DNA from: a virus
Taxonomy: Duplodnaviria; Heunggongvirae; Uroviricota; Caudoviricetes
Length of the DNA stretch: 42,276 nucleotides
Direction: 5' to 3' (one strand)
Virus record (IMG/VR): IMGVR_UViG_3300049215_000070
How positions within the stretch are numbered: the first letter of the stretch is position 1; every line of letters starts with the position of its first letter. The notes below the pieces were generated by a model. The model did no database searches and was not told the origin of the DNA. It saw only the letters and a program-made list of their open reading frames with translations. Of this stretch, positions 3 to 23,410 are shown piece after piece. The position numbers were made by a program, and so were the translations under genes.

Positions 3-251
3 CGCAAAGTATCTCCTGGCGCCTCGCTGGGCGCATTGGCGAGCGTTCTGGGCGGCGCGGGCGTACCGCATCAGCCGAGCGCACCGGGCATGGGTCCGTC
101 GCCTCCTGGGATGGCACCTGGGATGGGTTCCCCTCCGGGTGGGCAAATGGGTGCAATGCGGCCTCAGGCGCCTGGCCCTGGCGCTCCTGCGATGGCTGGC
201 GGTGGTTCCGTAAAACATGTAATGGTTCACCATATCTCGTACAAGAAGTAA
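3..251 (+). CDS. 5'-truncated Pro/Gly/Met-rich protein, probably a virion-associated protein; ends with an MAGGGSV motif
   Basis: Frame is open from base 3 (RKVSPGASLGALASVLGG...) to TAA at 249-251. Low-complexity PG/M repeats; sits at the head of the structural operon. Confidence 0.6.
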   Translation, partial: RKVSPGASLGALASVLGGAGVPHQPSAPGMGPSPPGMAPGMGSPPGGQMGAMRPQAPGPGAPAMAGGGSVKHVMVHHISYKK

Positions 252-321
252 TTCCGGGATATTCGATATTCGCGAATCGCGAACTCCCTGATTCGCATAA
301 GATTCTAGGAAGTAATCGCTG

Positions 322-1377
322 ATGGCGTCTACCAATCAGGGCACGGTCAACCCGCTACTCACGACCGGCACCTACAACAACATAGCGATTGACAACCGCA
401 CGTTCATTGACCGTGTGTACGGCGCGTTGAAGCTGCGCCCGCAGCAGATCACCGCCGAGATGATTTTGATTGGCCTGGACATGATAAACCTCGTGCAGCT
501 CGACATGCTGAACGACGCCGCGCCGCTTTGGACCCTTCGCAAGTACATCCAGCCCCTGTACCAGGGTCAGCAGCAGTACGTGCTCCCGCCGAGCACAAAC
601 GACGTCACGAAGGCGTTTTACCGGACGATGTCGAACCTGACCAGCTCCGCGACAATCACAAACTCGACCGCGTACTACCAGTGGAGCTTCACGCAGCCTA
701 CGCAGGTCACCACAATCAATCTGAACTGGCCGTCCGCGAGCTTCCCGGTGCAGTACCAGTACAGCCTTGACAACGTCAACTGGAGCACCGCGGCAAACTC
801 AAGCAGCACTCACAACGGCATTGTTGGGTACAGCGCGCAAGACATCGACAACGCCAGCGCGTACCAGTACTGGCGCGTCATCCCGGCCACCAGCCAAAAC
901 GGGGTGCCGATTACGGTGCCCAATACTTTGCCGCTGACGCTGAGCGGGCAGGTGTACAATACCCCTGCGGACATAGAAATGTACCGCATGAACCGGGACG
1001 ATTACTGGAACCTGACCAACAAGACCTTCCAGGGGAGACCGCTGCAGTGGTGGATGGATCGTCAAATATACCCGCAGATGGATCTCTGGCCCGCGCCAGA
1101 CGCCACCGCGGCTCAGAATTTCATGGTGGTCTGGCGGCAGCGCATGATCGCCGACGCAGGCAGCCTGCAGAACACGCTAGAGATCCCGCCGCGCTGGTAC
1201 CTGGCGTTTTTTTATCGTGTCGCCGCCGAGCTGGCTTTTTGCACACCAGAGGTTGACCCCGAGGTCACCGGGCAGATTCAGGCCAAGTCGGATGCTCACT
1301 GGAAACGCGCCTGGGGTGAGGAGCGCGACAAGTCCCCAATCAAGTTCCAGACGCAGATCGGGGTTTATACTCGATGA
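322..1377 (+). CDS. Head-tail adaptor/tail tubular-type structural protein with an inserted discoidin (F5/8 type C)-like domain
   Basis: 351-aa ORF. N- and C-terminal parts resemble phage adaptor proteins (YxLP motif, ..P.RWY.A....A.ELA). Central WSFTQPTQV...QYSLDNVNW...YQYWRV resembles a carbohydrate-binding beta-sandwich. Confidence 0.65.
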   Translation: MASTNQGTVNPLLTTGTYNNIAIDNRTFIDRVYGALKLRPQQITAEMILIGLDMINLVQLDMLNDAAPLWTLRKYIQPLYQGQQQYVLPPSTNDVTKAFYRTMSNLTSSATITNSTAYYQWSFTQPTQVTTINLNWPSASFPVQYQYSLDNVNWSTAANSSSTHNGIVGYSAQDIDNASAYQYWRVIPATSQNGVPITVPNTLPLTLSGQVYNTPADIEMYRMNRDDYWNLTNKTFQGRPLQWWMDRQIYPQMDLWPAPDATAAQNFMVVWRQRMIADAGSLQNTLEIPPRWYLAFFYRVAAELAFCTPEVDPEVTGQIQAKSDAHWKRAWGEERDKSPIKFQTQIGVYTR

Positions 1378-1751
1378 GCTTGTATCTCGACACGCGCGGA
1401 AACGCAAACGTCGCCATCGGTATATGCGGCAGATGCTCGCTGAAGTACCCGCTGGTGGACTTGCATCCTGATCCAAACAGCCCCGGCCTGATGGTGTGCG
1501 GCACCCCGGGGGCGATGACCGGCAAAGGGACATGGGTTGGCGGCTGGGGATGCGCGGACATGCTCGACCCGTACCGTTTGCGGACTCACGAGACCGAGAA
1601 CATCACGCTTGAGTACCCACGCCCTGACGTCAAGCTTCCGGTGCCTGGGTACGTCACGGTCGCTCCCGGGGACGCCAACTGGCCCCCATCACAATTTCCT
1701 GACGACGGCCTTCAAGCCGCGCAGCTTCCTTCAACTGGGAATAGTTCGTAA
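1374..1751 (+). CDS. Conserved phage structural-cluster protein with Cys motif (CGRC...C...C, DPYRL, PRPD)
   Basis: ATGA overlap with upstream stop; CxxC plus further Cys residues. Confidence 0.7.
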   Translation: MSLYLDTRGNANVAIGICGRCSLKYPLVDLHPDPNSPGLMVCGTPGAMTGKGTWVGGWGCADMLDPYRLRTHETENITLEYPRPDVKLPVPGYVTVAPGDANWPPSQFPDDGLQAAQLPSTGNSS

Positions 1752-2089
1752 TGCAGACAGCAACGATCATCGGCATAGAAGCGACATCCGGCCTCACGAC
1801 CAGCCTCGCAAACATCGGCAACTACGTGGTACCGGTATCAACCAGCGCCGTCATCAGCCATCTATTCGTCGCCAACAAGTCTGGCTCTCCAATTACCGCT
1901 AGCGTTTACGTCTACAACGGCAGCACGGGATATTACCTAGCGTACCAGGCCCCGATTGCGGTAAATGACACGCTGAATTTGCTTGGAGAGAACGGCAAGA
2001 TCACGCTCGCGACTGGATGGAGCATCCAAGCCAGCGCAAGCTCTGCGTCTGTTGCTGACGCATCCATGTCAGTCACTCAGTTCGTGTAA
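1751..2089 (+). CDS. Small beta-rich virion protein (112 aa)
   Basis: TAATG coupling; beta-strand pattern typical of small tail-associated proteins. Confidence 0.7.
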   Translation: MQTATIIGIEATSGLTTSLANIGNYVVPVSTSAVISHLFVANKSGSPITASVYVYNGSTGYYLAYQAPIAVNDTLNLLGENGKITLATGWSIQASASSASVADASMSVTQFV

Positions 2090-2092
2090 TCC

Positions 2093-3037: not shown

Positions 3038-3612
3038 TGGGCATTCAGCAAATGCTGCTGGCGGCTGGCGGATTCGTCCCGGTCACGCGCACGTACACCA
3101 CCGGAAATTCAGCAACTGAAACCCCTCCGGTCGGCGCAACGCATGTGCAAATTTCAGCGTGGGGTGGTGGCGGAAGCGGAGCGTACAATTCCGGAGCATA
3201 CACGTATGGCGGCGGCGGCGGCGCTTACGTTCAAACCGCAGTTATATCGCTTTCCGGCATATCCACATTTACATACACAGTCGGCGTAGGTAGCACTACC
3301 CCAGGAACTAGTCCGCAAAACGGTACTGCAGGCACGGCTACCAGTTGCACAGCTACTGGTGTTTCGATTTCCGCAGGCGCTGGTAGCGGCGGAAATTACG
3401 CTGGGCCAGGAGGCTCAGGCGGCACAGGCAGCGGCGGAACAATCAACGCATCAGGAAGCGCAGGATCTAACGGTGGTGTTGGCGGCAACAACGGACAAGG
3501 CGTAAACGGCGGCAACCAGTTACCCGGAACCGCGCCTGGTGGCGGCGGCGGAACAAGTACCAGTCAGGGATATGCGGGCGCTGCTGGTCAAATTAGTTTT
3601 GCTTACACTTAA
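3037..3612 (+). CDS. Glycine-rich tail-associated protein
   Basis: Start reassigned to ATG 3037 (TAATG overlap; MGIQQMLLAAGG). WGGGGSG/GGGGAY glycine-rich pattern. Confidence 0.7.
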   Translation: MGIQQMLLAAGGFVPVTRTYTTGNSATETPPVGATHVQISAWGGGGSGAYNSGAYTYGGGGGAYVQTAVISLSGISTFTYTVGVGSTTPGTSPQNGTAGTATSCTATGVSISAGAGSGGNYAGPGGSGGTGSGGTINASGSAGSNGGVGGNNGQGVNGGNQLPGTAPGGGGGTSTSQGYAGAAGQISFAYT

Positions 3613-3629
3613 ACTCACAAGGAAATCAC

Positions 3630-4096: not shown

Positions 4097-4097
4097 T

Positions 4098-5488: not shown

Positions 5489-5503
5489 GCTAGGTTAAAT
5501 CAA

Positions 5504-6178
5504 ATGCCAACCTCGATGACATTCACCAGCTTGCAGTCAGACGTCCAGACGTACATGGAGCGCGGCACCGTGCTCGATCCAATCGTGTACGCGCAGCTGC
5601 CGGAACTCATCAATTTCGCTGAGCGTCGAATCTCGCGCGAGCTTAAGGTGCTTGGGTTCGTCGTCGCCGCCACATTTACTCTGCAGCCCGGTTTGGCGGT
5701 TTACGCCAAGCCAGACCGATGGAGAAAGCTCATATCCGTAAACGTGGGACAGTCTGCCACCGGCAACAGCGTACGGTCTCAGGTGCTTCCGCGCAGCTAC
5801 GAGTACATTCGCGCTTACTGGCCGGATGACAGCCAAACGCTGACGACCACGTACGGAATTGCCGGACCACCCAAATTCTACGCGGAGTATAATTACCAGA
5901 ACATCATCGTCGCGCCGACGCCAGACGCCGCGTACCCTGCGGAGATCGTGTACTACGAGGAGCCTGCGCTGCTCGACGCCACGAACACCACCAACTGGAT
6001 CACGCAGTACGCCCCGAACCTGCTGCTGTACTCCACCTTGTTGGAGTGCGCCCCGTTTCTGAAGAACGACTCCCGCATAGCGACCTGGCAGGCGCTCTAC
6101 GACCGCGCCGCGGCAACCCTCGACAGCGAATCCAAGGCCGGTATCTTGGATCGTAATCCAACAAGGCAAGAAACGTGA
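5504..6178 (+). CDS. Phage adaptor/head-completion-type structural protein
   Basis: 224 aa; MTF.SL..DV..Y.ER, FI..AE.RI.RELK, P.PD..Y..E..YY, NW....AP..LLY..L.E pattern. Confidence 0.75.
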   Translation: MPTSMTFTSLQSDVQTYMERGTVLDPIVYAQLPELINFAERRISRELKVLGFVVAATFTLQPGLAVYAKPDRWRKLISVNVGQSATGNSVRSQVLPRSYEYIRAYWPDDSQTLTTTYGIAGPPKFYAEYNYQNIIVAPTPDAAYPAEIVYYEEPALLDATNTTNWITQYAPNLLLYSTLLECAPFLKNDSRIATWQALYDRAAATLDSESKAGILDRNPTRQET

Positions 6179-9548: not shown

Positions 9549-9565
9549 TGCCTATAGGATAAAAA

Positions 9566-10993
9566 ATGAAATTAAACATAGATGGAGACCCAACAACAGG
9601 AAAATCTGCTGCTGCATTGGAAAATTCCAAAGCCAATCAAGAAGCAGCTGCTCAAGCCAAACTTAACGCAGAGCTTCAGCCATATGCTCAGCAAACTATT
9701 GCAGATTTAAATAGCGGAAATTATTCTGGCGCATGGAACGAGGCTTTGCAATCATCGCCGCTGTACAACACGAATTACAGCTCACAGACAACAGATCCTT
9801 TGCTTGCCGATATGGAGTCTGCACAAGGTCTGCAGGAGCTTGATCCAAGCATTCAGTGGAACGCTACAAATACGGCTGCGTATTACAATGCTCTAGGTCA
9901 AAATCCTGTTTACAGCGGGCAAACGGTCAAGGGGGCGAATGGCGGCACAGAAAGCTTAGGTCAAAATCCGTACGGGGACTGGGGAGCTGGGGCTGCCGTT
10001 ACCAATGGAACAGACGCAAAAGCAAATCTAACGCAGGACCCCAATTCATCCCCCAATGTTTCGCAGTTCGCTGGGGCGAGACCTCGCGCTTCATTTCTTG
10101 ATAAATACGGCGCCGATATTGCGGCAATTGTTGCCACGGTGGCAACCGCTGGGGCTGGAGCACCGGCTCTTGGAGCGGCCCTTGCTGGGTCAGCGGCATC
10201 GGACCTAGTCAATGGTGCAGAAGGTAAATTAACCCTGAGCGGCGCCCTTGAGGGAGCCGGGATGGCGGCTCTTGGAGCCGCGGTTCCAGGCGCAAGTAGC
10301 GCTTTAAATTCCGCCACAGGAAACGCGCTAGGCACAGTCGGTTCGAACGCGTTAGTGGGCGCCGGGGTTGGTGCGCTTGGGTCAAAGCTAACCGGAGGCA
10401 ATCCATTGGTTGGAGCCATAGGAGGCGGCGCGGGGGGTGCTATACAAGCATCCGGGATAAACAATACAGTCGGGCAGCAAATTAATAGCGCCACCGGACT
10501 CCCTGTATCTGTTGGGGCTGGTTTATCTGGCGGTGCATTAGGCGCAGGGGTTGGCGCTATCACGGGCAGCTTGAGCGGCCAGGGGGCAGCAAATGGCGCC
10601 TTAATGGGTGGAGTTGGGGGCGCTCTAAGGGCTGGCGTTGGATCGGCAACTGGAAACCAGACCATAGGTAACGTTGCTGGTACAATAGGCAGTGCCCTAG
10701 CGGGCAAATACTTGACGTCTTCCCCGGCGGCTGCTACCGCAGCAGCCGCACCGGCTACTGCTACCGTTGCGGCGGCAAAAACACCTACGCCTGCTGCAAC
10801 AACTGCCGCGCAAACAGCACCTGCGCCGACGCCTCTTTTCCAGCAGCCAACCAATATTGGCACGTACAACTTCAACAGCACCGGATTGGGTTACCAGCCA
10901 ATGAGCCAGGTTAATCCAGGAATTACCAATTACGCGACTTACGGGCAAGGACCAGAAGCAAACTTCTTTGCCCCCACGCCAGGAACAACATGA
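9566..10993 (+). CDS. Putative DNA-ejection (internal virion) protein with glycine-zipper membrane-like region
   Basis: 475 aa, A/G-rich GxxxG repeats, located downstream of the nozzle where ejection genes typically lie. Confidence 0.65.
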   Translation: MKLNIDGDPTTGKSAAALENSKANQEAAAQAKLNAELQPYAQQTIADLNSGNYSGAWNEALQSSPLYNTNYSSQTTDPLLADMESAQGLQELDPSIQWNATNTAAYYNALGQNPVYSGQTVKGANGGTESLGQNPYGDWGAGAAVTNGTDAKANLTQDPNSSPNVSQFAGARPRASFLDKYGADIAAIVATVATAGAGAPALGAALAGSAASDLVNGAEGKLTLSGALEGAGMAALGAAVPGASSALNSATGNALGTVGSNALVGAGVGALGSKLTGGNPLVGAIGGGAGGAIQASGINNTVGQQINSATGLPVSVGAGLSGGALGAGVGAITGSLSGQGAANGALMGGVGGALRAGVGSATGNQTIGNVAGTIGSALAGKYLTSSPAAATAAAAPATATVAAAKTPTPAATTAAQTAPAPTPLFQQPTNIGTYNFNSTGLGYQPMSQVNPGITNYATYGQGPEANFFAPTPGTT

Positions 10994-11091
10994 GAGAAAC
11001 GTCCGGTATAAGGCAACTTGGCGCACTAGGCGACAACATCGAAGGGCTGGAAAAGCTCATTTCTTACCTCCGTCGAGCGGAATCACATTAA
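10990..11091 (+). CDS. 33-aa mini-ORF (MRETSGIRQLGALGDNIEGLEKLISYLRRAESH), not in the ORF track
   Basis: ATGA overlap upstream, TAATG overlap downstream, AGGA upstream. Confidence 0.55.
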   Translation: MRETSGIRQLGALGDNIEGLEKLISYLRRAESH

Positions 11092-12548
11092 TGTCGAAAC
11101 TCAGAGAAATCTACAAGGGCTCATTCAAAGGGCGTCGTAACAAGCACGACGTGGTAACGGCGTACGACGGCGGATACATGGATTTTTCCACGTCCTCTTT
11201 CGATCCGAGCACGGTTGTTCCCACGGCGGTTGACACCGGGTACGGCAGCGGCTACAACCCCAGCACCGACCCCAATGTCGCCGGTTACACGGGATCACAA
11301 GACAGCAGCCTTGCGGCGCCCGCGGCCACGGGGCTGGATCAAAATTACCTGTCGACAATCAACGCCGAGCTTGCCGCCGACCCTACCGGAGAAAACGCCG
11401 CCGCCAGTTTTGATAGCAGCAAATCAAAATCTGGCTCATCTTCTGGCTCATCTGCCGCGTCAAGCGCCGCAGGTGGTGCGCTTGGTACGCTACTCAAGGC
11501 GCTGGGTCTTGGGAGCGGAAACACCAGCGCGCAAGGTATCACCGCGCTGGCCGGGCTGCTCTCTGCCGCTGGGCAGTACAAGCAAAACTCCGCGTACGCG
11601 CCGACGTTTGCGCCGCCCGCGTTATTTGGCGGGACCTCAGGGACCACATCCGGCAACACCGCAGGCATCGCGTCGACCGGGTACGGACCCGCTGGCGGCT
11701 ACAACTACGCCAACTACAAAGGCCTGGTAGCGGGCGCCCCCGGGCTGGGTTACGCGCCGCAGACCGCGACCACGCCCACGATCCCAAATTACTACACCTA
11801 CGGTCAGGGTCCGCAGCAGAGCTTTTTCACCACGACGCCGTCGAGCGCCACGCAGCCCACCGCAATGAAAAAAGGCGGCAAGGTCAGCACGCCGCAGCGT
11901 TTTGCCATGGGCGGGTTCAACACCGGCATGATGCCGCCCGTCCACCCCAACATGGGCACGATCACCCCCAGTATGGGGGTGCCTAGCGCCAATCCAATGG
12001 CGGGCGGTATTACGACCAGCGGCCCGTCAAACCCGACCGGCACGCCATCCTTTGGCGCAATGCCCGCGCAACGCGGCGCGCAAGTGCGCCCGGCGGTCCC
12101 GGCCACAATGCCTCCGCAGCAGACCCACACGCAGCCCATGCCGGGTCGAGCCTTTGCGAATGGCGGCAGCGCCGCGCCTCAAGCGTCGTCCTCGTCGTTT
12201 ACCAGCCAGGTGCCTCAAAACCTGTCTGGGGTGCTCTCAGGGATGCGCAAAGCCTCTACCCCTAGTCACGCACCCCCGCTGGCTACGGGCGGCGCCTTGG
12301 CCTCCGTAAGCCGTCACGTCAAGGGTCCGGGGGATGGTACTAATGACAAAATTCCGGCACGCCTATCGCCCGGAGAATTCGTAATTTCTGCGGATGTTGT
12401 AAGCGGCATCGGTAATGGTGACAATGGTGCAGGCGCCAGAAAACTCGATGCGTTTATGAAAAACGTCAGGAAGCACAAAGCAGAAAATGGATCTAAGGGT
12501 AAATTGCCAGCCAATGCTAGGCCAGTGGCAAGTTATCTAGGGAAGTAG
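11091..12548 (+). CDS. Putative internal virion protein with five xxxGG motifs and a C-terminal GPG.G..D.IPA.LS.GEFV domain
   Basis: Start reassigned to ATG 11091; low-complexity S/T/P/A/G body; conserved C-terminal domain. Confidence 0.75.
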   Translation: MSKLREIYKGSFKGRRNKHDVVTAYDGGYMDFSTSSFDPSTVVPTAVDTGYGSGYNPSTDPNVAGYTGSQDSSLAAPAATGLDQNYLSTINAELAADPTGENAAASFDSSKSKSGSSSGSSAASSAAGGALGTLLKALGLGSGNTSAQGITALAGLLSAAGQYKQNSAYAPTFAPPALFGGTSGTTSGNTAGIASTGYGPAGGYNYANYKGLVAGAPGLGYAPQTATTPTIPNYYTYGQGPQQSFFTTTPSSATQPTAMKKGGKVSTPQRFAMGGFNTGMMPPVHPNMGTITPSMGVPSANPMAGGITTSGPSNPTGTPSFGAMPAQRGAQVRPAVPATMPPQQTHTQPMPGRAFANGGSAAPQASSSSFTSQVPQNLSGVLSGMRKASTPSHAPPLATGGALASVSRHVKGPGDGTNDKIPARLSPGEFVISADVVSGIGNGDNGAGARKLDAFMKNVRKHKAENGSKGKLPANARPVASYLGK

Positions 12549-12550: not shown

Positions 12551-12658
12551 ATGTATCGCGTTTACCAAATTATCAATGCTGAGTCTAAAAAAAGATACAT
12601 CGGAATGACCAGAATGTCAGGACGCGAGCACTTCGGACACGCGTCAGTGGTGGCGTAA
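12551..12658 (+). pseudogene. 35-aa GIY-YIG endonuclease N-terminal remnant
   Basis: Translates MYRVYQIINAESKKRYIGMTRMSG..., matching VY.I.N....K.YIG.T; stops at TAATG of the next gene. Confidence 0.65.
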
Positions 12659-13755
12659 TGGGCGCACTCAGCTTTCTCAATCAGGGCACGGCGCCGAGCG
12701 CCAGCTCAAACTACAGCCAAAGCTCGACCCAGCTTCCCAGCTGGTACACGGACTACACGCAGCAAATCCTGAACACCGCGGCGCAGTTTGCCGCGCAACC
12801 GTATCAAACGTATCAGGGTCCGCGCATAGCCGCTCAAGACCAGAACACGGAAAACGCTTATTCCGCGGCCCCCGGCATCGCGAACACCGCGAGCGGCACG
12901 AACACCACCGCGCAGAATTTGATTCAGCAGGGCGCGAATCAGAACAACCCCTTAGGGGCGGCGCAGCCGTACCTCAATCAGGGCACAGACCCGACGTACA
13001 ACACGGTTCAGAATTACATGAACCCGTACAACACGGATGTCACGAATGCCATCGCGACCGCGGGCAACACAAATTTCAATCAGAACACGCTCCCGGCGCT
13101 GCAGTCGTCTATCATTGGTGCGGGCAACATCACCGGCAGCTCGACGGAGGGAACAAACCTCATCGAGAACGCGGAACAACAAAACAACCAGAACATCACA
13201 AACGCGCAAGCCGCGGCGCTGCAGTCTGGGTACACGGGATCTTTGAACGCCGCGCAACAAGGCAACGCAAACGCGCTCACCGCCGGTCAAACCGCCGCCA
13301 ACGCAAACACCGCGCAAGCCAACACCTCAATCAACGCCGGGACCGCGGCGTCGAACGCAGGCACTCAAGCCACCGCGAACGAGCTTGCCGCGTCGAACAA
13401 TGAAAACACTCTGGGTCAGCAAAATCAGGGGTATAATCAATCCAATTTGAACCTGGCGTACCAGGACTACCTGAACCAGCTCAATTACCCGCTCACTCGG
13501 GTCAGCGAGATGCAGGGCGCGCTATCAGGGATTCAGGTGCCGTCCGCCACCGTGAACTACAACTACGGTACCGGCGTCGGCGGCGGCAACGGCAGCGCGC
13601 AGGGCAGCACAACGTCGCCGCTTGCGAGCTTGTTCGGCACCGGAGTTGGCGCCGCGGCAGGCGCGGCTGGCAGCACGACCCCAACCACAACCAACACCGC
13701 AGCCGGGCCGTCAAATGTCGGCGGGTTTGTCAACGGCGTCTGGCAAGGGAGTTAG
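12658..13755 (+). CDS. Putative DNA-ejection/pilot protein
   Basis: 365 aa Q/N/A-rich; LP.W......A.....PYQ.Y.GPRIA, YMNPY, AYQDY..Q..YP motifs typical of podophage ejection proteins. Confidence 0.75.
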   Translation: MGALSFLNQGTAPSASSNYSQSSTQLPSWYTDYTQQILNTAAQFAAQPYQTYQGPRIAAQDQNTENAYSAAPGIANTASGTNTTAQNLIQQGANQNNPLGAAQPYLNQGTDPTYNTVQNYMNPYNTDVTNAIATAGNTNFNQNTLPALQSSIIGAGNITGSSTEGTNLIENAEQQNNQNITNAQAAALQSGYTGSLNAAQQGNANALTAGQTAANANTAQANTSINAGTAASNAGTQATANELAASNNENTLGQQNQGYNQSNLNLAYQDYLNQLNYPLTRVSEMQGALSGIQVPSATVNYNYGTGVGGGNGSAQGSTTSPLASLFGTGVGAAAGAAGSTTPTTTNTAAGPSNVGGFVNGVWQGS

Positions 13756-13756
13756 C

Positions 13757-15574
13757 ATGGCTGAGCAAGTCAACAGCATGGGCATTCCACTTGAAGATGC
13801 CGAGCTGGACGATCCAAGTAGCAACATAGACGCCCCTGACCCGTTGCTTGACGAGTCCCCTCGAAGCGGCGCGCTTGCGGCTGTCACTCAAGGTGGCGCA
13901 CGCCGAGCGGCCAAAGATCGCTACGACGAGAACAACGCCGAGATGGACGATTTGCGTCAGCAGTACGCAAGCACCGCCAAACAGCAAGCGGACGCGTACG
14001 CTCAGCAGAAAGCGCAAATTGACGCAGCGACCGCGCGCCTCCAGGGCATGCAGGTTGGCCCCAGCGACCAGGAGAAGCTGTACCGTATCGCGGCGGCTGG
14101 CGCCACACCAAACCACAACGGCGTCGACATCGCCGGGATCAACGCCACGCAGGCCGACGTACTCAAAGAACGGCGCGAAGCGGAGCTGCAAAAGCAAAAC
14201 CTTCTCGCTCAGTACGGATTTCAGGGTCCGCAGGCCACCATTGGCGCAACCAATGCAAAGTTGAATCAGCTCACGCAGCAGCAGCGCATCGTCGCCGGTC
14301 AGCTCAACAGCGCAGGCAACCAGCAATTCCGTGGGCAAGCCAACATGCCGTTTGGGTTAACCCAGAACGCCGACGGCTCCGTTTCTGTCGCCCCTGGCAT
14401 GGAGCAGTACTGGAACGAAAAATCACTGGCTGCCATGTACGGCAAAGGCTACATGAAGCCGAACCCGGACGGATCTAAGTCCTGGATATCGCTCGCGCCT
14501 TTGGCCGCATCTTTGCAGCGCGGGCAGCAACCGCCTCAGCAAGCGCCGCAACAGGCACCGCAACAGGCACCGCAAACGCCGCCACAGCAAGGTGGGGGAG
14601 CAATAACTCCTCAAGCACCTCGTCCAGTCGCGGCTGCGGCACCTTCTGCGGCACCGGCAGCAACAGCCCCGCAAATCCCATCCGCACCTACGGCACTCCA
14701 AGCGCCAGCAAAGCCTCTGCCCAGCCCGTATGACGATTTGTTCATACCGTCCACGGTGCTAGACCCGAAATACGGCGCGCTTACGCCTGCAACCAAGCCC
14801 GCGTACGTTGCCACCGCGGCGCAGGCTTTCGATCCCGCGTACTTCAAAGAGTACCAGTTTCAGGCGAACAATTTTGGCGACATGGATGTTCGCAAAAAAA
14901 ACCTGGAGAAAGAAGCCGCCGAGCTTGCGGAAGCGGGCAACAGCGCAAAAAGCGTCATCTACAATTACGGTCAGGCGCTGCATCAAATGGACCAATTGAA
15001 CGACCCGCAGCTTCTCAGCGGACCCGCGGGCGCAAAAATTGGCGCGTTCGAGAACACGCTTCGCGGCGTGCTGCCAGATACCGTAACGCAGCAGCTTTTT
15101 AGCGACCCAAACCTGAAAAAACTCGCCACTCAACAGGACACAGACAAGTACTTTTTGAACGCGGCGACAACCGGCCTAAAAGCTATTTACGGTGGCCGCA
15201 TCACGAACATGGAAGTGCAGCAACGACTCAAGAGCCTGCCCAGCAATAACCTGCTCCCGGCGGTGACGCGCATGCTAGCCGCGGCGCAGGCCGAGGTCGC
15301 TCAAGATACGGTCAACAAGGGCAAGCTATTTGGCGCTTACGTGCGCAAAGGTGGAGATCCCGCACCGGGAACTTTCAACACCTGGTACGAGGCAAACTTT
15401 GACCCGTTTGGTGAAAGCCGTCTCAAGCAAAATTTGAATCAGCTGCAAACCGTTGCCCCTGCAAAAACCGCCGCACCCGCTGCGCAAAACCCGCTGGTTG
15501 CTTACTACAGCGGCCCGTACGCCGCCTGGGTTGCTGGCGGTAAAAAAGGCCCGCAACCCCCGAGACCTCGGTAA
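13757..15574 (+). CDS. Putative internal virion/ejection protein (~605 aa)
   Basis: Start reassigned to ATG 13757 (GGGAG SD); coiled-coil segments and a PQQA-repeat linker. Confidence 0.7.
   Translation: MAEQVNSMGIPLEDAELDDPSSNIDAPDPLLDESPRSGALAAVTQGGARRAAKDRYDENNAEMDDLRQQYASTAKQQADAYAQQKAQIDAATARLQGMQVGPSDQEKLYRIAAAGATPNHNGVDIAGINATQADVLKERREAELQKQNLLAQYGFQGPQATIGATNAKLNQLTQQQRIVAGQLNSAGNQQFRGQANMPFGLTQNADGSVSVAPGMEQYWNEKSLAAMYGKGYMKPNPDGSKSWISLAPLAASLQRGQQPPQQAPQQAPQQAPQTPPQQGGGAITPQAPRPVAAAAPSAAPAATAPQIPSAPTALQAPAKPLPSPYDDLFIPSTVLDPKYGALTPATKPAYVATAAQAFDPAYFKEYQFQANNFGDMDVRKKNLEKEAAELAEAGNSAKSVIYNYGQALHQMDQLNDPQLLSGPAGAKIGAFENTLRGVLPDTVTQQLFSDPNLKKLATQQDTDKYFLNAATTGLKAIYGGRITNMEVQQRLKSLPSNNLLPAVTRMLAAAQAEVAQDTVNKGKLFGAYVRKGGDPAPGTFNTWYEANFDPFGESRLKQNLNQLQTVAPAKTAAPAAQNPLVAYYSGPYAAWVAGGKKGPQPPRPR
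14534..14590 (+). repeat. Imperfect 12-bp coding tandem repeat (PQQA)n
   Basis: cctcagcaagcg ccgcaacaggca ccgcaacaggca ccgcaaacg... Confidence 0.7.
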
Positions 15575-17538
15575 TGGCAAACGATACGGACTTACTTGCG
15601 GCCTTAAAGGCCGCGCATGACGCCGGGGATGACGAGGCGGCGGCGGCTATTGCCGCGCAAATGTCGGCGCAACCGGTGACGCATGAACCGGTCAAACAAC
15701 CGGACACGTTGACCATTACTCCATCAGATCCATCAGAGCAACCAGGTGGCGAGCACTGGATGGAAAAATACGGCCCGACGTCAGGTATGAGCGGGCTGGA
15801 TAAATTTCGTGCGGGAATTGGTCAATCTTTTGTTGACACCGGGCGAGGAATATCGCAATTATTTGGTGGTCAATCCAAGTCGGACACCGACGAGCAGCGC
15901 CGATTAGACGCGCCCCTCGACAGGACCGGCGCTGGATTGGCCGGTAACATCCTGGGAGGCGTGGCGCAATCCGCGTTGCCCGGGTTGGGCGCCGAGGCAG
16001 CAGGCGCAAAGATCGCCTCAGGGCTTGCGACAAGTCCCGGCGCGCTGCAGGCCGCGCAGGCCATTTACCGCATCGCGCGTCCCGCCGCAACCGGCGCCGC
16101 GTACGGAGCGTTAGCACCAGTCGGAAGCAATGAGACGCGCGCAGGGAACGCCGGTCTGGGCGCCGCTGCGGGTGAGGTCGGTCAGGTGCTGGGTAACGCG
16201 GGCGCGAATGTGCTGCGCTCCGGTGAGGATGCGCTTACAGCTGGCGCTCGCAAAGGCGCCGACATCGCCCGCAAGTACGGCATTCCGTTAAGTATGCCGC
16301 AGCTCGCAGGCAAATTTACCGGTTTCGTTGGGGACACGCTTGATAAACTGCCGTTCAGCGGTGCGAGCGACCGACGAGACGCGCAGCGAAGCGCATTCAA
16401 TGACGCGCTGGGTCGTACCGCCGGAATACCAAACGCGCAAGGCGCGATCAACACCGACATGGTTGACCACGCGCGAGACACCGTAGGCAGCGCCATTGGC
16501 AACATGGCGAGCAACCGTGTCGCGCTTGTTACCCCGAAACAAGTTCAAGGTGTCACGCAGCTTCTGCAGGACGTGAATGACGTCTCGACGCCTGAGACGG
16601 CGCGCGTAGTCAACAACTACGCCAACAAAATGTTCGGTATGGGCGCGTCCGGTCCTTCCAAAGTCATCCCCATCAACAATGCGCTTCCCGGCGGACCCAT
16701 CGCGCAAATACCTGGCGACGCTTGGCGCGAACAGAACACACAAATCGGGAACCACATCCGCAGGCTTGGGCCAAACGACGGCGACCTGAAGTACTACCTG
16801 GGCGAGCTGCAAGACCATTACATGGATACTATGCAGAACGCGATGTCGCCCGAAGAATTCAATCAATTCCAAAGTTTGCGCGGGCAATACCGCAACAATC
16901 GAACCATCGCCCCGCTTGCTGAAAAAGCAGGCGACGAAGGTATCAACCCGTTGCTGGTGCAAGCGAGAGCTATTTCGGCCAAAAACAACCGCGGCGACGT
17001 TGGAGAGCTTGGGGATTTTGCCAAGTCAATGCTCGCCAAAAAATACCCGGACAGCGGCACCGCGCAACGCGCGCTGATGTACTCCGCGATTACCGGCGGA
17101 TTGGGCGCTGGGGCTGGCGCGTTACTAGACGACGAAAATCACGGCACGGGCGCGGCATATGGAGCGCTCCCTGGCGCGGCGATGATCGCTGGCGGGTTGG
17201 CCGGTCGAGGTCTGAATTCTCAGGCGCTCAGTCGGTTGTATCAGGCGCGCATGCCGGAGCCTGTTGCGGGCACGATTCGAGACCTGGCGGCTCGTAGCCC
17301 GGTTGCGGCGCAGCGCGCGGAGCAAGTAATCGCGCCACAGGAAGGATACGCAGACGGCGGCGAAGTCAAAAAATCAACCTTCTGGGATCTTGTGCAGCAA
17401 GCTGTCAAAGAGCTAGCTTCACCCAGCACCAATGCACCGCCCACGCCGACACCAGCACCCGGCACAGTAGCATCAGGCAGTGTAGGCCAAGACTTTGACA
17501 ATAAGGTGAACCAAGCCGTGCAAGGCGCCGGTGGTTAG
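15574..17538 (+). CDS. Large putative ejection protein (654 aa) with a C-terminal YADGGEV motif
   Basis: TAATG coupling; A/G-rich helical protein; PDSGTAQR motif seen in podophage ejection proteins. Confidence 0.7.
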   Translation: MANDTDLLAALKAAHDAGDDEAAAAIAAQMSAQPVTHEPVKQPDTLTITPSDPSEQPGGEHWMEKYGPTSGMSGLDKFRAGIGQSFVDTGRGISQLFGGQSKSDTDEQRRLDAPLDRTGAGLAGNILGGVAQSALPGLGAEAAGAKIASGLATSPGALQAAQAIYRIARPAATGAAYGALAPVGSNETRAGNAGLGAAAGEVGQVLGNAGANVLRSGEDALTAGARKGADIARKYGIPLSMPQLAGKFTGFVGDTLDKLPFSGASDRRDAQRSAFNDALGRTAGIPNAQGAINTDMVDHARDTVGSAIGNMASNRVALVTPKQVQGVTQLLQDVNDVSTPETARVVNNYANKMFGMGASGPSKVIPINNALPGGPIAQIPGDAWREQNTQIGNHIRRLGPNDGDLKYYLGELQDHYMDTMQNAMSPEEFNQFQSLRGQYRNNRTIAPLAEKAGDEGINPLLVQARAISAKNNRGDVGELGDFAKSMLAKKYPDSGTAQRALMYSAITGGLGAGAGALLDDENHGTGAAYGALPGAAMIAGGLAGRGLNSQALSRLYQARMPEPVAGTIRDLAARSPVAAQRAEQVIAPQEGYADGGEVKKSTFWDLVQQAVKELASPSTNAPPTPTPAPGTVASGSVGQDFDNKVNQAVQGAGG

Positions 17539-17617: not shown

Positions 17618-17641
17618 GGTCATCTCCTGTTAAGATGACCC

Positions 17642-17670
17642 AATCTACTGCGTCTTGAAGGTAAAGTCAA
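17642..17670 (-). promoter_or_regulatory. Sigma70-like promoter TTGACT-N17-TAGATT
   Basis: Minus strand: -35 at 17670-17665, -10 at 17647-17642, upstream of an AGGAG SD. Confidence 0.6.
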
Positions 17671-18191
17671 TGTTTGACCGCATAATCGACTTCTTCTTCC
17701 AGTTCGCAAGTTTGTTTCAATTTTGGGTGATTTTGGAGCCGTATGACGAAGGCGTGCGCCTGAGGCTAGGAAAGCAGCACGGTGGCCCGCTGAGATGCGG
17801 GTTGCACTGGAAAATACCGTTCAAGGTCGACCAAATCCTGACGCTGCAGGTGGTCCCTTCGACGCACAGCCTGGGCGACGAAAGCGTGATGACAAAAGAT
17901 GGGAAGTCCATCACGTTTCACGCGATTATAACTTTTCAGATCAGCGACATCGAGAAAGCTCTTCTCAAAGTTCATGACGTAGATCACGCTGTGAGAGATA
18001 GCTGCTCCGGTGAGGTGGGTCGCGTATTGCGCGAAAGCACATGGGATGAGATATTGAAAGATGACATTCTCGATAAGCTGACCGCGGCCTGCCGAAAAAA
18101 GGGCTGGCGCTGGGGGTTGGAGATCATGTCGGTGCAGCTTGCCGGGTTGTCTATCGCGCGCAATATTCGTCTCATGAACAGTAGCAGGTAA
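17670..18191 (+). CDS. SPFH/band-7 (prohibitin/stomatin-like) domain protein
   Basis: V.PY.EGVRLRLGK......GLHWKIPF, TKDGKSI, WG..I..V.L motifs; start probably ATG 17670. Confidence 0.85.
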   Translation: MFDRIIDFFFQFASLFQFWVILEPYDEGVRLRLGKQHGGPLRCGLHWKIPFKVDQILTLQVVPSTHSLGDESVMTKDGKSITFHAIITFQISDIEKALLKVHDVDHAVRDSCSGEVGRVLRESTWDEILKDDILDKLTAACRKKGWRWGLEIMSVQLAGLSIARNIRLMNSSR

Positions 18192-18192
18192 A

Positions 18193-19323
18193 ATGTCAAA
18201 CACACCCGATGAACGTTCAGTCAAGATCGCTAAACTCCACGCCAAGGGCCTTTCCCAAAGGGAAATAGCCAAAAAACTCGGCATCGCGCAAAGCACCGTC
18301 TCGGAGCGCCTCAAAAAAGTAGGCGGCTCATTCCCCGCACCAGACGGGCATTACGTCAAAGCAACCTCCACCCTTTACAGCCCAGACGGCGAGATCAAGC
18401 TTCAGTGGGTGAAATCTAGCCTAGATGAAGAGGCGCGTCAAGCAGCAGAGAAGGCCGCATTTGCGGCACTGTGCGAGACGCTGCCACGGTATGTGCCGAC
18501 CAACGGCCCCGGGCACACCGACGCGGAGCTTGCGAACCTGTACGTGTTTACAGATTGTCACGTAGGCATGCTGGCATGGGGCAAGGAAACCGGGGACGAC
18601 TGGGACACGGGAATCGCTGAGCGCACGCTGATTCGAACTTTCGAGGCAATGATCGCGGGCAGCCCCAAGGCGCGGGTTGCTATAATTGGGCAGATGGGGG
18701 ATTTTTTGCATTTTGACGGTTTACTGGCCGTTACCCCCACATCCAAGCACGTACTTGACGCCGACAGCCGATTCTCAAAAATTGTCAAGATCGCGATACG
18801 GGTGCTGCGGTACATCATCGACATGGCGCTTCTCAATCACGAGGAGGTCCACGTCGTCATGGCGGACGCGAATCACGACCCGGCGAGCCAGGTTTGGCTG
18901 CGGCACATGTTCACCGCGCTGTACGAGAACGAGCCGCGCGTCAAGGTCAACGACAGCGAAAAGCCTTTCTATGCGTACCAGCACGGCGAAACCATGATCG
19001 GGTTTCACCACGGGCACACGCTGAAAAAAGAAAAGCTCCCGCTGCTGCTTGCCACGCTGTACCCCAAGATGTGGGGCAACACGCTCAAGCGATACTGCCA
19101 CACCGGTCATCTGCACACGGTGGACGAGGTCGAGGCCAACGGCATGAAGATCGTGCAGCATCCCACTATTGCCGCCAAGGACGCGTACGCGGTTCGTAAC
19201 GGCTGGGTAAGTCAGCGACAAGCATCATGCATTACCTATCACCAGTCTTATGGCGAAGTCGGTCGCACCGTCGTCTGCCCCGAGATGTTCGAGACAATTA
19301 ATGGACCCACAAACCCTCATTGA
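18193..19323 (+). CDS. Calcineurin-like metallophosphoesterase with N-terminal HTH
   Basis: HTH (GLSQREIAKKLGIAQSTVSERL); DCHVG, GDFLH, ANHD, HHGH, GHLH metal motifs. Confidence 0.85.
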   Translation: MSNTPDERSVKIAKLHAKGLSQREIAKKLGIAQSTVSERLKKVGGSFPAPDGHYVKATSTLYSPDGEIKLQWVKSSLDEEARQAAEKAAFAALCETLPRYVPTNGPGHTDAELANLYVFTDCHVGMLAWGKETGDDWDTGIAERTLIRTFEAMIAGSPKARVAIIGQMGDFLHFDGLLAVTPTSKHVLDADSRFSKIVKIAIRVLRYIIDMALLNHEEVHVVMADANHDPASQVWLRHMFTALYENEPRVKVNDSEKPFYAYQHGETMIGFHHGHTLKKEKLPLLLATLYPKMWGNTLKRYCHTGHLHTVDEVEANGMKIVQHPTIAAKDAYAVRNGWVSQRQASCITYHQSYGEVGRTVVCPEMFETINGPTNPH

Positions 19324-22300
19324 CAAATACCGCGGCGTTCTTGGGCTTACCGGGCACGCCGCTCAGTCCACCGCAGCGAACATCGCGGGCGGACTTGTGG
19401 GCCTTGGAAACCTTCCCAGAGGCATAGACGCCGCTGAGTCTGCCCGTCAGCTGATTACCGACAAGCTTTCCCCAGGAGAACCCGACTCGCAAACCATTGG
19501 CCTGATACGGGACATCGCCCCGGCCTACCTGGCCGCGGCGCGCAGCCCGGTCGCCAAGGCGGCGCACGCCGTCGGGGACGCGTACGACAAAAGCGTCGAC
19601 ACCTACGCCGACTTAGCGTCGCGCTACCTGGGCGCCCCGGCTGGGGGTGAGGTGGCCGCATTGGGCGCCGCGCTGCCAAACGCCGCCTTTCCTGAATCAA
19701 AAGCCGCCAAAGCCACCGAGTACGCCGCCCCCGCCGCCGAATTGCTGAGCAAGTACCCGGCGACCCCGGTGCTGCCAGACGGCTCGACCCTGCGCACGCT
19801 GGCCCGTGAGGGCGCCGCAAACGCCCGCAGAGCCGACGAAGGCTTACCCCCTCCCGATGTGCTCGCAAGCGATTTCGCAGGCAGGCAGGCCGCGCACGAG
19901 GGCGCCGTGGCGCAACGTAACGCGGACCCGGCGTACATCAAGGCCAAGGTACCGGCCACGAGCGTAGACCCGTCATTGTACCCATCTAGTTTTAGCCCGC
20001 CGGACAACGCGGAGGCGTACGTCGCCATGGATCCGCAAACCGGGCAGCACATCGGGCATGTGACGTTCGTCAAGCGCGGTGACGGCGTATCCAGCTTGCG
20101 CATGGACGTCGCCCCCACTTATCAGGGGCAGGGCATCGGCAGCGACTTGCTGAATGACGCCATTGCAAACGCGCACGACCAGGGCCTGCCGTACCGGTCA
20201 GACACTCAGGTAAGTGTTCCGGCAGCCAAAACTTACAGCAAGCTTCCCGGGGCGATCCGCAACGAGGACGTGGATCACATGATTGACCCGAATGACGGTC
20301 ACGTCGGGGTATCCAGCAACGGTCGCGCGGTGTTTGAGATTCCGCCGAGTGCGGATGCGGACGACGCGACACCGGACGAGATGCCGCACTTCAACCCGAA
20401 CAGCTACATCGGCAGCCAGGCGTACGCCGAGGGCGGTGAGGTTGCGCCTGCATTGGGGGACATTGGCGACCTGATTGCGCGCTACGCAACCAAACCGCTG
20501 CCCGGGTTACCTGCCAAGGTGCAGGTGCCGGGAGTTGGCGGACTAGAGGTTGGTCCAAACCCCAAAATCCGCCAGGTAGCGCAAAATTACATGGACGAGG
20601 TCGGAATCAAAAACCCGCCTCAGCCCATTTACGCCAAGGCCGACCCGGTGCGCGGTAAAGCGATTGCCGCCGCCTACGACGCCGCGCAGCACAACCCCAG
20701 CGACCCGGACGTCAAGGCCTCGTACGACGCGCTTATCAAGGAAACCTTGGCGCAGTATCAGCACATCAAAAACGCAGGACTTAAGGTAGATCTTATTCAG
20801 CCCGGTCAGGCTGACCCGTACGCCGCCTCGCCGCGACTCGCGGTAGAGGATATCAACCGCAACAACCACATGTGGGTATTCCCGACGTCAAGCGGATTCG
20901 GTACCGAGGGCGCGGCGCCGATGGATCACCCACTGCTGGCGGATAGCGGCGAAACAATTAGCGGGCAACCCGCAACCGCGAACGACATTTTTCGGGTAGT
21001 TCACGATTATTTTGGGCACGCCAAGGAAGGAGTCGGATTTCGCGCCGATGGCGAAGAGAACGCCTGGAATCAGCACGCGCGCATGTACTCGGATCTAGCC
21101 AAACCGGCGATGACCGCAGAGACGCGCGGGCAGAACAGCTGGGTGAACTTTGGTCCTCACGCCGACGCGAACAAAGGCGCGAGCGCCGCCAGCACCGTGT
21201 ACGCACCGCAGAAGGCTGTCATTTTGCCGGATGTTTACAATGATCCCGACGCCGGACGGACGATGGATTTTTTGCACATGTCCAACCTGACAGACCCGCA
21301 GGTTACGCTTGACCCTGCGGCGTACGGCACAGGCATGAAAGGCGCTGAGGCGCGCAGGGGCGGAACCAAAACCATCAGCCTGTACCCTGCGAACATAGAC
21401 CCCAAGGATATCGAGCTGCCGCTGCAAGGAAAAACACCGTACCGTGTCTCGGTTCCCGCGAGCCAGATGTACGACATGTCGAACGATCCGCTAGGATACC
21501 GCTCGATAACGCCCAGCTACAGCGACGCCGAGGACGCCATCAGGGGTGCGGGATGGGCCGGGTATTACACACCGGATCACGAAGACCCAAGACAGCGCGG
21601 GCAGGCGCGGCTGTTTGTGCCGACGACCGCGACACGCCTTGACCCCATTGACGCGCCCGGGCCAACGAAAGCCGCCGCAGCGAAAAGCAGCGGCTTGTAC
21701 GACGACACACTGGACACCTCAGATTTCTCTACCGGTGGCCTGGTTCAAAAATACGCCGACGGAGGTGAGGCAGCGGTCGCGCTCGATGATGTCGCAAACC
21801 TTATCGCCAAGTACGGCAAAGATGCCGCCCCAGCGCAAGCGGAGCATCTCGCGAATGCGGTCTCCGAGAACGGCTCCGCTACCTACAACCCAACCACCGG
21901 AGACGTCCACAGCAGCGGCTACGCCGTTCCGCACGATATTAGCCGCAGTGTCGCCCTAGACGCGCCGCCTACCGCGGGCGACATCCATGACTTCATGCTG
22001 CAAAACCAGGACGCATTCGACAACCCGAAGGCGGCAGTTCACGTCGAGAGCGACGGTAACGGCAATCACTTCATCCACGTCGCTCACGTCGAGCCAGATT
22101 TTGATAGCGCAATGGCTGCCGCCAAGGCATTCGACGCGCCGGGAGTACGCGAGCTTCATACTGGCAACAATTTTCCTGCTGATGGTCCCGCCGGGATCAG
22201 CGATGATGCGGATACGGGGATAGAGGATTACTTGGCGGGATCAAAGATACCAGAGACAAACCTACCGGCGGAACTGGACACAGAGCGCAATCAGAGACCA

Positions 22301-23410
22301 AGGACGGCGTGGAAATATGGGAAGCCAACGGTTGATCCTGCGCAACGGGTGGCTTTTCCGGGGATCTACAATGATCCTCGTCAGGTGATTCAGGATGCGA
22401 ATTCAATGGTTGGTCCAGAAGAACCTCTGCTTGAGAGATTATTCGGCGTAAATCGTCAAGATCTATCCGACATCGCATTAGGTCGGCAAGGAAACGAAAT
22501 CGGGACTCTTCCTGGGGCAAAGCCTGGATCGACTGGAGCCGCCTCAGCGCGAGCAGTAATGACTCCGCAGAACGAGCAGCGTCTGATAGACGTTCTGAAC
22601 GAAGCTCGTGGAACGCCGTTACACACGGGTATGACTGGTTGGTATTCAATGGACCCTCTCTATGAAAGATTTAGGCAAATATTTGGTGACGAGGACGCGC
22701 CAGCTAAGTACCAGCAATTCAATACTCTTTCTGGAATGGCGTCTCCGGGGTCAGACGTGGGAACTGAGATTGCGCGGGGGACATCTGCAAATTGGCTGCA
22801 AAACCAGGGACGCTTTGCTGATTTCCTAAAGTACTCTGGGGTTGCAAACGATGAGCGGGCAGGGATTCGCGATTACCCTCAGGATATTCTCGATGTTCCT
22901 GGGCATGCGTACCACAAGACGGCGCATGCTCTGCCAATGAGCCAGTACCTGTCTTCTGGTGAGATCCAGATGAAGTCCCCGAAGGTTCCAATGTACATTG
23001 GGGCATCAGGGGTACCAGAGACTGGATTTCAATCAGATATGCCAGTAGGCGACGCCCACTGGGCGCGCGGAGTAGGTCTAGCCGATACCCGGAACCCTCG
23101 CACTTTGAAAGGAGAAAGCATCGTCCCGGGTTCGTCGGCATCGACTCCAGAAATGCAGACACTTGGTCCTTGGTGGCGAGATCGGGTGGCAGCTCAAGCC
23201 GGATATGGAGCCGTTCCAGCTCAGGCGACCGCTTGGGGGGTTTTCGCGCCGTATACAGGCGTAACATCCAACATAGGGGCGCCGAAACTAGAGATACTAT
23301 CGACTCAGATAGGAAAACTAGCCCAACGGCTAGGGGTATCACCAGAAACAGCCAGGGATCTTGTGATCCAGGGTAAAGCAGGGGCGTACTCATCAGGAGG
23401 CTCCGTCTAG
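19301..23410 (+). CDS. Large polyvalent protein (~1369 aa): GNAT + HDxxxH zincin-like + ART-like + SAM-lyase-like + HhH-glycosylase-like modules
   Basis: Start reassigned to ATG 19301. GNAT motif A (DVAPTYQGQGIGSDLL), HDYFGH..GEE, H.S..YGTG..GAE, GYAV, VGDAHWAR..QATAW. Confidence 0.75.
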   Translation: MDPQTLIDKYRGVLGLTGHAAQSTAANIAGGLVGLGNLPRGIDAAESARQLITDKLSPGEPDSQTIGLIRDIAPAYLAAARSPVAKAAHAVGDAYDKSVDTYADLASRYLGAPAGGEVAALGAALPNAAFPESKAAKATEYAAPAAELLSKYPATPVLPDGSTLRTLAREGAANARRADEGLPPPDVLASDFAGRQAAHEGAVAQRNADPAYIKAKVPATSVDPSLYPSSFSPPDNAEAYVAMDPQTGQHIGHVTFVKRGDGVSSLRMDVAPTYQGQGIGSDLLNDAIANAHDQGLPYRSDTQVSVPAAKTYSKLPGAIRNEDVDHMIDPNDGHVGVSSNGRAVFEIPPSADADDATPDEMPHFNPNSYIGSQAYAEGGEVAPALGDIGDLIARYATKPLPGLPAKVQVPGVGGLEVGPNPKIRQVAQNYMDEVGIKNPPQPIYAKADPVRGKAIAAAYDAAQHNPSDPDVKASYDALIKETLAQYQHIKNAGLKVDLIQPGQADPYAASPRLAVEDINRNNHMWVFPTSSGFGTEGAAPMDHPLLADSGETISGQPATANDIFRVVHDYFGHAKEGVGFRADGEENAWNQHARMYSDLAKPAMTAETRGQNSWVNFGPHADANKGASAASTVYAPQKAVILPDVYNDPDAGRTMDFLHMSNLTDPQVTLDPAAYGTGMKGAEARRGGTKTISLYPANIDPKDIELPLQGKTPYRVSVPASQMYDMSNDPLGYRSITPSYSDAEDAIRGAGWAGYYTPDHEDPRQRGQARLFVPTTATRLDPIDAPGPTKAAAAKSSGLYDDTLDTSDFSTGGLVQKYADGGEAAVALDDVANLIAKYGKDAAPAQAEHLANAVSENGSATYNPTTGDVHSSGYAVPHDISRSVALDAPPTAGDIHDFMLQNQDAFDNPKAAVHVESDGNGNHFIHVAHVEPDFDSAMAAAKAFDAPGVRELHTGNNFPADGPAGISDDADTGIEDYLAGSKIPETNLPAELDTERNQRPRTAWKYGKPTVDPAQRVAFPGIYNDPRQVIQDANSMVGPEEPLLERLFGVNRQDLSDIALGRQGNEIGTLPGAKPGSTGAASARAVMTPQNEQRLIDVLNEARGTPLHTGMTGWYSMDPLYERFRQIFGDEDAPAKYQQFNTLSGMASPGSDVGTEIARGTSANWLQNQGRFADFLKYSGVANDERAGIRDYPQDILDVPGHAYHKTAHALPMSQYLSSGEIQMKSPKVPMYIGASGVPETGFQSDMPVGDAHWARGVGLADTRNPRTLKGESIVPGSSASTPEMQTLGPWWRDRVAAQAGYGAVPAQATAWGVFAPYTGVTSNIGAPKLEILSTQIGKLAQRLGVSPETARDLVIQGKAGAYSSGGSV

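Follow-up and report, generated by a model that had tools for sequence, protein, structure and literature searches.

A hydrophobic-AxGG motif at module boundaries of ejected phage proteins, a possible junction or processing signal

Introduction

The organization, loading and processing of ejected phage proteins are poorly understood. The tape-measure proteins of siphophages are ejected through the tail, and two of them are known to be cut: pb2 of T5 is cleaved after residue R1127 (PMC10038345), and gpH of lambda is cut in a C-terminal Gly-rich region (PMC12617516). In P22, the host oligopeptidase OpdA removes 20 N-terminal residues of gp7 according to the P22 record (L019, 9369-10058), and the protein would then start with KGGKGG. 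The polyvalent proteins (Iyer, Burroughs, Anand, de Souza, Aravind, 2017, PMC5512222) are multi-domain proteins of virion modules, found in phages and conjugative elements, for which that article proposes processing by zincin-like metallopeptidase domains; no description of an AxGG junction was met in a term search of its text. Here, we describe a short motif with the core hydrophobic-Ala-x-Gly-Gly (AxGG) in four proteins encoded by a 42,276-nucleotide stretch of DNA from a podovirus-like phage (Caudoviricetes, IMG/VR record IMGVR_UViG_3300049215_000070), which is referred to below as the window.

The hydrophobic-AxGG motif, a core of the GE[FY]V type and a helix are likewise present in the tail-ejected tape-measure proteins of siphophages (T5 pb2/pb2C, lambda gpH/gpHC, JBD30 gp46 and Douge gp16). 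Unlike these, the window proteins are podovirus internal or ejection proteins, and they lack the N-terminal domain of tape-measure proteins, a coiled coil and a tail tube. As in ejection proteins of the P22/Xfas53 type, the gene order in the window is that of an ejection block; P22 gp7, gp20 and gp16 contain at most scattered and unconvincing matches to AxGG. The largest of the four proteins, of 1386 amino acids (aa), carries a GNAT domain and resembles the polyvalent proteins in its multi-domain, virion-module character. The element is an uncatalogued relative of a known theme, that of the C-terminal processing regions of tape-measure proteins and of the polyvalent proteins.

A sequence-only reading of the window had proposed another set of relatives. 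It listed eleven heptamers around a Gly-Gly pair and suggested that they mark proteins for cleavage by a prohead protease, as in T4 (gp21) and phiKZ (gp175), and/or for loading into the head, as does the capsid-targeting sequence of T4. The substrates of gp21 and gp175 are similar in that a short consensus marks internal proteins for processing, but their consensus sites end in Glu and not in AxGG. The capsid-targeting sequence of T4 is an N-terminal tag of about 10 residues that is taken off once loading is done, whereas the motifs described here are internal or C-terminal and also occur in tail-tube proteins. Another lead, and no more than that, is the adenovirus protease, the sites of which, (M/I/L)XGG-X, lie in basic, DNA-associated core proteins that are cut into small peptides. 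These sites also iterate a hydrophobic residue with Gly-Gly, but they belong to another virus realm and the spacing is off by one residue; a clan-CE protease, as in adenovirus, was not seen here.

Eleven conserved Gly-Gly sites in four virion proteins

All eleven heptamers were recovered exactly where the sequence-only reading had placed them, in frame of four open reading frames (ORFs; 3-251, 10968/11091-12548, 15574-17538 and 19250-23410). The motif-bearing features are as follows.

3..251, plus strand: last 82 aa of a Lys/Gly-rich internal protein, the gene being cut at its 5' end by the window edge; full-length homologues in relatives
192-212, plus strand: MAGGGSV of the Lys-rich protein
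11091..12548, plus strand: 485-aa ejection-block protein; the ORF is open from TTG 10968, and ATG 11091 is the start in homologues
11160-11180, 11865-11885, 11901-11921, 12153-12173 and 12279-12299, plus strand: the five Gly-Gly sites of the 485-aa protein, AYDGGYM, MKKGGKV, FAMGGFN, FANGGSA and LATGGAL
12324..12479, plus strand: tape-measure-type cassette (GPGDGTNDKIPARLSPGEFV ... RKHK), directly after LATGGAL, aa 412-463 of the 485-aa protein
15574..17538, plus strand: 654-aa DNA-ejection protein (phrog_26400, Xfas53 ejection protein)
17347-17412, plus strand: YADGGEV plus an amphipathic helix; the 654-aa protein ends in ...GAGG
19250..23410, plus strand: 1386-aa polyvalent effector protein with a GNAT domain (aa 253-332, GNAT families being the only ones that Pfam finds in it); alternative start at 19301
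20423-20485 and 21725-21814, plus strand: junction modules of the 1386-aa protein, the first with YAEGGEV and the second with a double motif (FSTGGLV at 21725, YADGGEA at 21752)
23387-23407, plus strand: shortened junction, YSSGGSV-stop, at the C-terminus of the 1386-aa protein

The description of these strings as one and the same 7-mer was overstated, as Gly-Gly alone is common to all of them, and they represent 11 of the 29 GG sites in the four ORFs. Counts were compared with 1000 composition-matched shuffles. The GG dipeptide is not enriched, neither in the structural arm (87 observed, 99.8 expected) nor in the four ORFs (29 observed, 37 expected), and the suggested excess over a Gly-matched background does not hold at this level. 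It does hold for the narrower core [FY][AS]xGG, with 7 occurrences in the four ORFs against 0.45 expected (0 of 1000 shuffles) and none in the 42 non-structural ORFs; YA[DE]GGE was found three times, with an expectation of about 0. To avoid circularity, the test was repeated with a window-independent pattern derived from the flanks of tape-measure cassettes (see below), [FYLMKRH]AxGGx[IV], of which the ejection and internal proteins contain three copies as compared to 0.15 expected (1 of 1000 shuffles), while elsewhere the counts are at chance level.

The strongest evidence that the heptamers are non-random is their positional conservation. All eleven sites are kept in homologues that are mostly 35-75% identical, where they form islands amid poorly alignable linkers. 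The five sites of the 485-aa protein can all be aligned across 11 homologues with 35-65% identity, and the conservation of the GG columns is 0.75-1.0 as compared to 0.31-0.59 in the flanks. In an alignment of 12 sequences of the 654-aa family, the Ala and both Gly residues of YADGGEV are invariant and the Asp is nearly so, inside a linker of variable length. The motif, usually beginning with Met, was identified in homologues down to 37% identity, 21 of the best 22 carrying it. In those full-length homologues that are closer to the window protein, [MYHL]A[DE]GG is followed by a conserved helix, KS[ST]FWDLV, and these proteins end in GG, as does the window protein. The assignment of the 654-aa protein as a DNA ejection protein of the P22/Xfas53 type is based on similarity (phrog_26400, E 2.4e-29; tblastn matches to Xfas53 and to a "DNA injection protein") and on its position in the block after the tail genes.

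For the Lys-rich protein, no tblastn match among deposited phages and no PHROG match were obtained. Full-length Lys/Gly-rich homologues of about 435-518 aa are encoded directly upstream of the gene for a 351-aa protein in the related contigs L002-L006. MAGGGSV has a counterpart, M[SK][HT]GG[GQK]V, in the five relatives, and the full-length proteins contain about 11 copies of [YF]x[KH]GGx[VI], all of which align, the most divergent relative included. In one relative (L004:8677-9984), aa ~70-118 of the Lys-rich protein read unlike those in L002, L003 and L005, with the loss of one GG site, which looks like a compensating frameshift pair or an assembly error.

Judged by these alignments, the heptamers appear to be variants of a single short linear motif, hydrophobic (or Lys/Arg)-Ala/Ser-x-Gly-Gly-x-Val/Ile, which is conserved and lies in predicted disordered linkers. 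The motif is restricted to ejected or internal proteins and located at module boundaries. Its placement near termini and module junctions and its lack in the adaptor, nozzle and replication proteins, as previously suggested, were both borne out.

A tape-measure cassette downstream of the motif

The C-terminus of the 485-aa protein is formed by a cassette of about 55 residues, GxGDGTSDSIPAxLSxGE[FY]V plus helices, which matches PHROG tape-measure families. The window copy contains the core D-x-I-P-A-x-L-S-x-G-E-[FY]-V, preceded by G-x-G-D/T-G, and LATGGAL precedes the core Asp by about 21 residues, within the range of about 30 residues in which the hydrophobic-[AS]xGG motif was sought. No Pfam or NCBIfam tape-measure domain was identified in the 485-aa protein, and the surrounding genes are those of an ejection block of podovirus type, together with an SU10-type adaptor. 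This protein has a module in common with tape-measure proteins, yet is not a tape-measure protein itself.

Searches with the cassette alone, without the motif, identified 12,419 clusters (E<=1e-3) among 1.84 billion representatives; the cassette has no Pfam or NCBIfam family. In the best 150 of the 12,419 matches, [AS]xGG was located at most 30 aa upstream in 131 of 161 cassettes, of which 75 have one fixed spacing, and the spacings between motif and cassette fall into classes of 12, 14 and 21 residues. The flank logo of these cassettes reads [FKYLRM]-A-x-G-G-x-[IV]. The motif is present on both sides in 48 cassette units, and 22 of the 150 proteins have a C-terminus of the form ...Y[ML]xGGx. 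The large matches that we examined, with two to 7.8 thousand residues and 4-10 cassettes, are siphophage tape-measure proteins, three according to Pfam and one according to its gene neighborhood, and in true tape-measure proteins SLT and NlpC/P60 domains are bracketed by cassettes. Two proteins of about 7,800 residues (P0199 and P0326) have 9-10 cassette matches each; similar but smaller multi-cassette matches are siphophage tape-measure proteins with lysin domains between the cassettes.

Among named phages, the cassette with an upstream hydrophobic-AxGG, in some cases with a second GG motif after it, was found in gp065c of Caulobacter phage GB2A and in Planktothrix phage Pag-Yong1. In lambda gpH, the motif copies surround a GEFV core (FATGG 733 ... 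GEFVF ... YATGG 779), so that a second AxGG follows the unit. T5 pb2 carries a reduced form of the cassette without the GDGTSDSIPA part. Two tape-measure chains in the PDB (8zdo_S and 8rk3_A) match the cassette; for JBD30, the reported resolved residues do not include it. Literature searches recovered the cleavage facts for T5 and lambda, and no description of the motif or the cassette.

In an AlphaFold2 (AF2) model, the window cassette has a predicted local distance difference test (pLDDT) score above 80 and the motif a score below 50, that is, the motif is predicted to be disordered beside a confidently folded cassette, which suggests that it behaves as a short linear motif in need of a partner or an enzyme. 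A Foldseek search of the cassette model against the PDB gave no match, and a homotrimer prediction for the window cassette scored 0.15 (mark 0.42), which weighs on neither side as to binding. The model of a tape-measure unit with two flanks is of low confidence (mean pLDDT 61.6) and thus cannot be taken as a sign that a domain is closed by pairing of the AxGG flanks.

Another motif that recurs, YGxGP(E/Q)xxFF, was observed at the end of a 475-aa protein (10940-10969) and inside the 485-aa protein (11799-11828). As YGxGPExxFF, it is invariant in the 485-aa family and also present in GB2A gp065c and Pag-Yong1; in some proteins, YGxGP(E/Q)xxFF is directly followed by SEGG.

Junction modules of the polyvalent protein

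The 1386-aa protein was assigned to the polyvalent class, as at least two unrelated effector domains are combined in one polypeptide of the virion module. A zincin-like metallopeptidase domain, a common theme of this class and not a strict requirement, was not identified in it by Pfam. A domain of about 245 aa (aa ~425-660) recurs in 850 long proteins of multi-domain architecture; ART-PolyVal, MuF, InPase, SAM-lyase and M15 peptidase domains are represented among these. Searches of PDB sequences with the ejection and polyvalent proteins gave no match.

In this family, the motif heads a junction module of about 25 residues, [FYH]A[DE]GGEV-G..LG.L..L[IV].KYAP, that is located ahead of exchangeable enzyme domains in up to four copies per protein; in P0072, for example, such modules flank ART-PolyVal. 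Hydrophobic-A[DE]GG was observed 63 times in 120 polyvalent homologues, as compared to 6.9 expected, and YAEGGEV, FSTGGLV, YADGGEA and the terminal YSSGGSV are all kept. Close homologues end in ...GA[YF]xxGGxV. The window end, ...AGAYSSGGSV-stop, corresponds to an internal junction in two longer relatives (P0073 and P0070), which extend beyond it with a helix and one more domain. Within the window protein, the junction copies at aa 392 and aa 835 show 54% identity over a stretch of 24 residues and 29% identity at third codon positions, which argues for selection on the peptide and not on the DNA.

Cleavage precedents and a survey for proteases

The published T5 cleavage falls on the bond R1127-A1128 in the sequence ...FVPR|AEGG..., directly before AEGG, and splits off a module. 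For lambda gpH, a hypothetical cut before A734 would yield fragments with computed masses of 79.8 and 12.5 kDa, near the published values of about 78 and 14 kDa. P22 gp7 is cut one residue before GG and without an Ala, unlike the AxGG motif; by analogy, it may be taken as a precedent for processing of an ejection protein by a host enzyme next to a Gly-Gly pair.

No peptidase family was identified in the window ORFs scanned, nor in the head module of the relative L004, the portal-proximal part of the relatives not being fully read; the head modules of the relatives contain scaffold-like, 183-aa, 218-aa and capsid genes only. The sequence-only reading had pointed to the terL-portal-capsid region as the place to look for a protease gene, and none was encountered within these limits. 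A prohead protease like that of T4 or phiKZ is therefore unsupported. A T4-like head-loading signal fares no better as the shared function: motif and cassette are typical of tape-measure proteins of the tail tube, and head targeting can for this reason not be what the carriers have in common.

Interpretation of the motif

The motif is probably a joint or a cutting signal rather than a head-loading tag. The interpretation that we tentatively put forward, with a likelihood somewhat short of even, is that it serves as a junction or processing signal in proteins whose way out of the virion is the tail. It forms the boundary element of a modular junction in three settings: flanking the ~55-residue cassette on one or both sides, heading the ~25-residue module before successive enzyme domains in polyvalent effectors, and iterated about 11 times in the Lys-rich internal protein. 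The trait common to these carriers is their exit via the tail channel as long modular chains. By analogy with T5 pb2, the motif may be recognized as the point of module separation or processing, by a host enzyme or by self-processing and not by a prohead protease, and one long ejected polypeptide would yield pieces that act separately. The earlier notion of a modular cargo tag survives in part, as a boundary signal in ejected proteins at which domains are appended or exchanged, and loses its analogies with prohead proteases and capsid tags.

Several observations weigh against processing. The sole mapped cleavage site is the single case of T5, a siphophage, where the cut precedes the Ala. No protease candidate emerged from the ORFs and head modules surveyed, the P22 ejection proteins show little of the motif, and the ~11 sites of the Lys-rich protein would imply that it is shredded into small peptides. 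Many natural C-termini stop just after GG(xV), which suits a binding tail at least equally well and makes docking a close rival. It is possible, if less probable than processing, that the motif is a short strand or tail docking onto one common partner, such as the portal or tail-channel lumen, the hub or other ejected proteins, without being cut; it would keep cargo in the exit path or let ejected proteins co-assemble. Docking would account for the motif at the extreme C-terminus in three families (cassette proteins, close polyvalent homologues and the ejection protein), for the multiple copies in the Lys-rich protein and for the predicted disorder of the isolated motif, which is typical of binding motifs; moreover, in T5 the stretch immediately ahead of the cut becomes bound to the hub upon opening (PMC10038345). 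On the other hand, a single shared partner is not obvious because the neighbors of tape-measure proteins in the tail tube differ from those of podovirus internal proteins in the head.

The remaining explanations appear weaker than either processing or docking. If the Gly-Gly joints and the small helix were a passive hinge that lets bulky domains thread singly through a channel of ~3-4 nm, the location of the motif, always in low-complexity linkers between modules, and the exchange of domains at these points would follow, and its conservation would reflect mechanical needs together with the shared ancestry of linkers convenient for recombination. For a hinge, however, there would be no need of an Ala that never varies, of a hydrophobic residue at -1 or of Val/Ile at +2, and its distance to the cassette would not have to be fixed at 14 residues. 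The third-codon divergence speaks against recombination at the DNA level as the source of conservation; we consider the hinge unlikely. The model of T4 gp21- or phiKZ gp175-like protease substrates and/or a T4-like capsid-targeting sequence fits the nature of the carriers as internal or ejected proteins of the virion, and the recurrence of the motif at boundaries. Given the protease survey, the presence of the motif in tail-tube proteins that never enter heads and its internal or C-terminal position, where a capsid tag would be N-terminal, this model is very improbable. As for chance or the composition of Gly-rich proteins, GG dipeptides are at or below expectation and the heptamers were picked from a larger set of GG sites, but the conservation of all eleven in homologues and the strong enrichment of the narrower motif refute such an artefact, to which we give next to no credence.

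More speculatively, the ejected proteins of all tail types, that is, tape-measure, podovirus ejection, polyvalent and Lys-rich proteins, might share a universal AxGG joint of a polyprotein that is processed by itself or by the host, an extension that we regard as rather doubtful. If it were true, the ejected chain would be cut into enzymes, channel formers and small basic peptides, with new cargo plugged in at the joints, and the cleavage site of lambda gpH would be FATGG, before A734. Although over 12,000 protein clusters contain the joint, neither Pfam nor NCBIfam covers it, and it defines residues for mutation in T5, lambda and cultivable podoviruses. It may further provide a rule by which very long tape-measure or polyvalent chains can be divided into modules, and a site at which cargo could naturally be inserted when virions are engineered.

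Gene layout of the window

Positions 1-23410 on the plus strand constitute the late or virion arm of the phage, and the remainder of the window contains genes for early functions and replication. Deposited sequences yielded no near-identical phage DNA. The other features of the late arm are as follows.

322-1377, plus strand: 351-aa protein, phrog_12985, role unassigned; the gene next to the Lys-rich gene
Between the 351-aa gene and the adaptor, plus strand: fibre-like and lysis genes, by gene order
5504-6178, plus strand: 224-aa SU10-type adaptor (PF24175, E 6.7e-30)
After the adaptor and before the ejection block, plus strand: two large virion proteins
9566..10993, plus strand: 475-aa Gly/Ala-rich ejection-block protein without the AxGG motif, ending in YGQGPEANFF (10940-10969)
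12658-13755, plus strand: 365-aa ejection-block protein, motif-free
13757-15574, plus strand: ejection-block protein of about 606 aa, motif-free
17655-19323, after the 654-aa ejection protein and ahead of the polyvalent protein: SPFH/Band-7 protein and HTH-phosphoesterase (phrog_704)

The 365-aa and ~606-aa proteins were placed in the ejection block by synteny with gp064c/gp063c of GB2A and with Pag-Yong1, and the pattern [FYLM][AS]xGG has no match in either of them (12658..15574). The 351-aa gene was also considered as a capsid gene; this was dropped, as relatives carry the true capsid gene upstream (L004:5122-6039). That gene, of the Mu gpT-like type, is located about 4 kb upstream of the 351-aa gene in relatives, with HNH genes inserted between the two. 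The match of the adaptor to PF24175 ties the tail of this phage to those of SU10-like podoviruses.

The ORF for the 475-aa protein is the only long frame at 9566-10993, and its GC content at third codon positions is 0.45, as compared to 0.62-0.81 in most neighboring virion genes; this atypical composition could reflect either a recent acquisition or a strong amino-acid bias. The window also contains two endonuclease VII genes and, in the non-structural arm at 35921-37750, a gene for a protein of the GH5 cellulase family.

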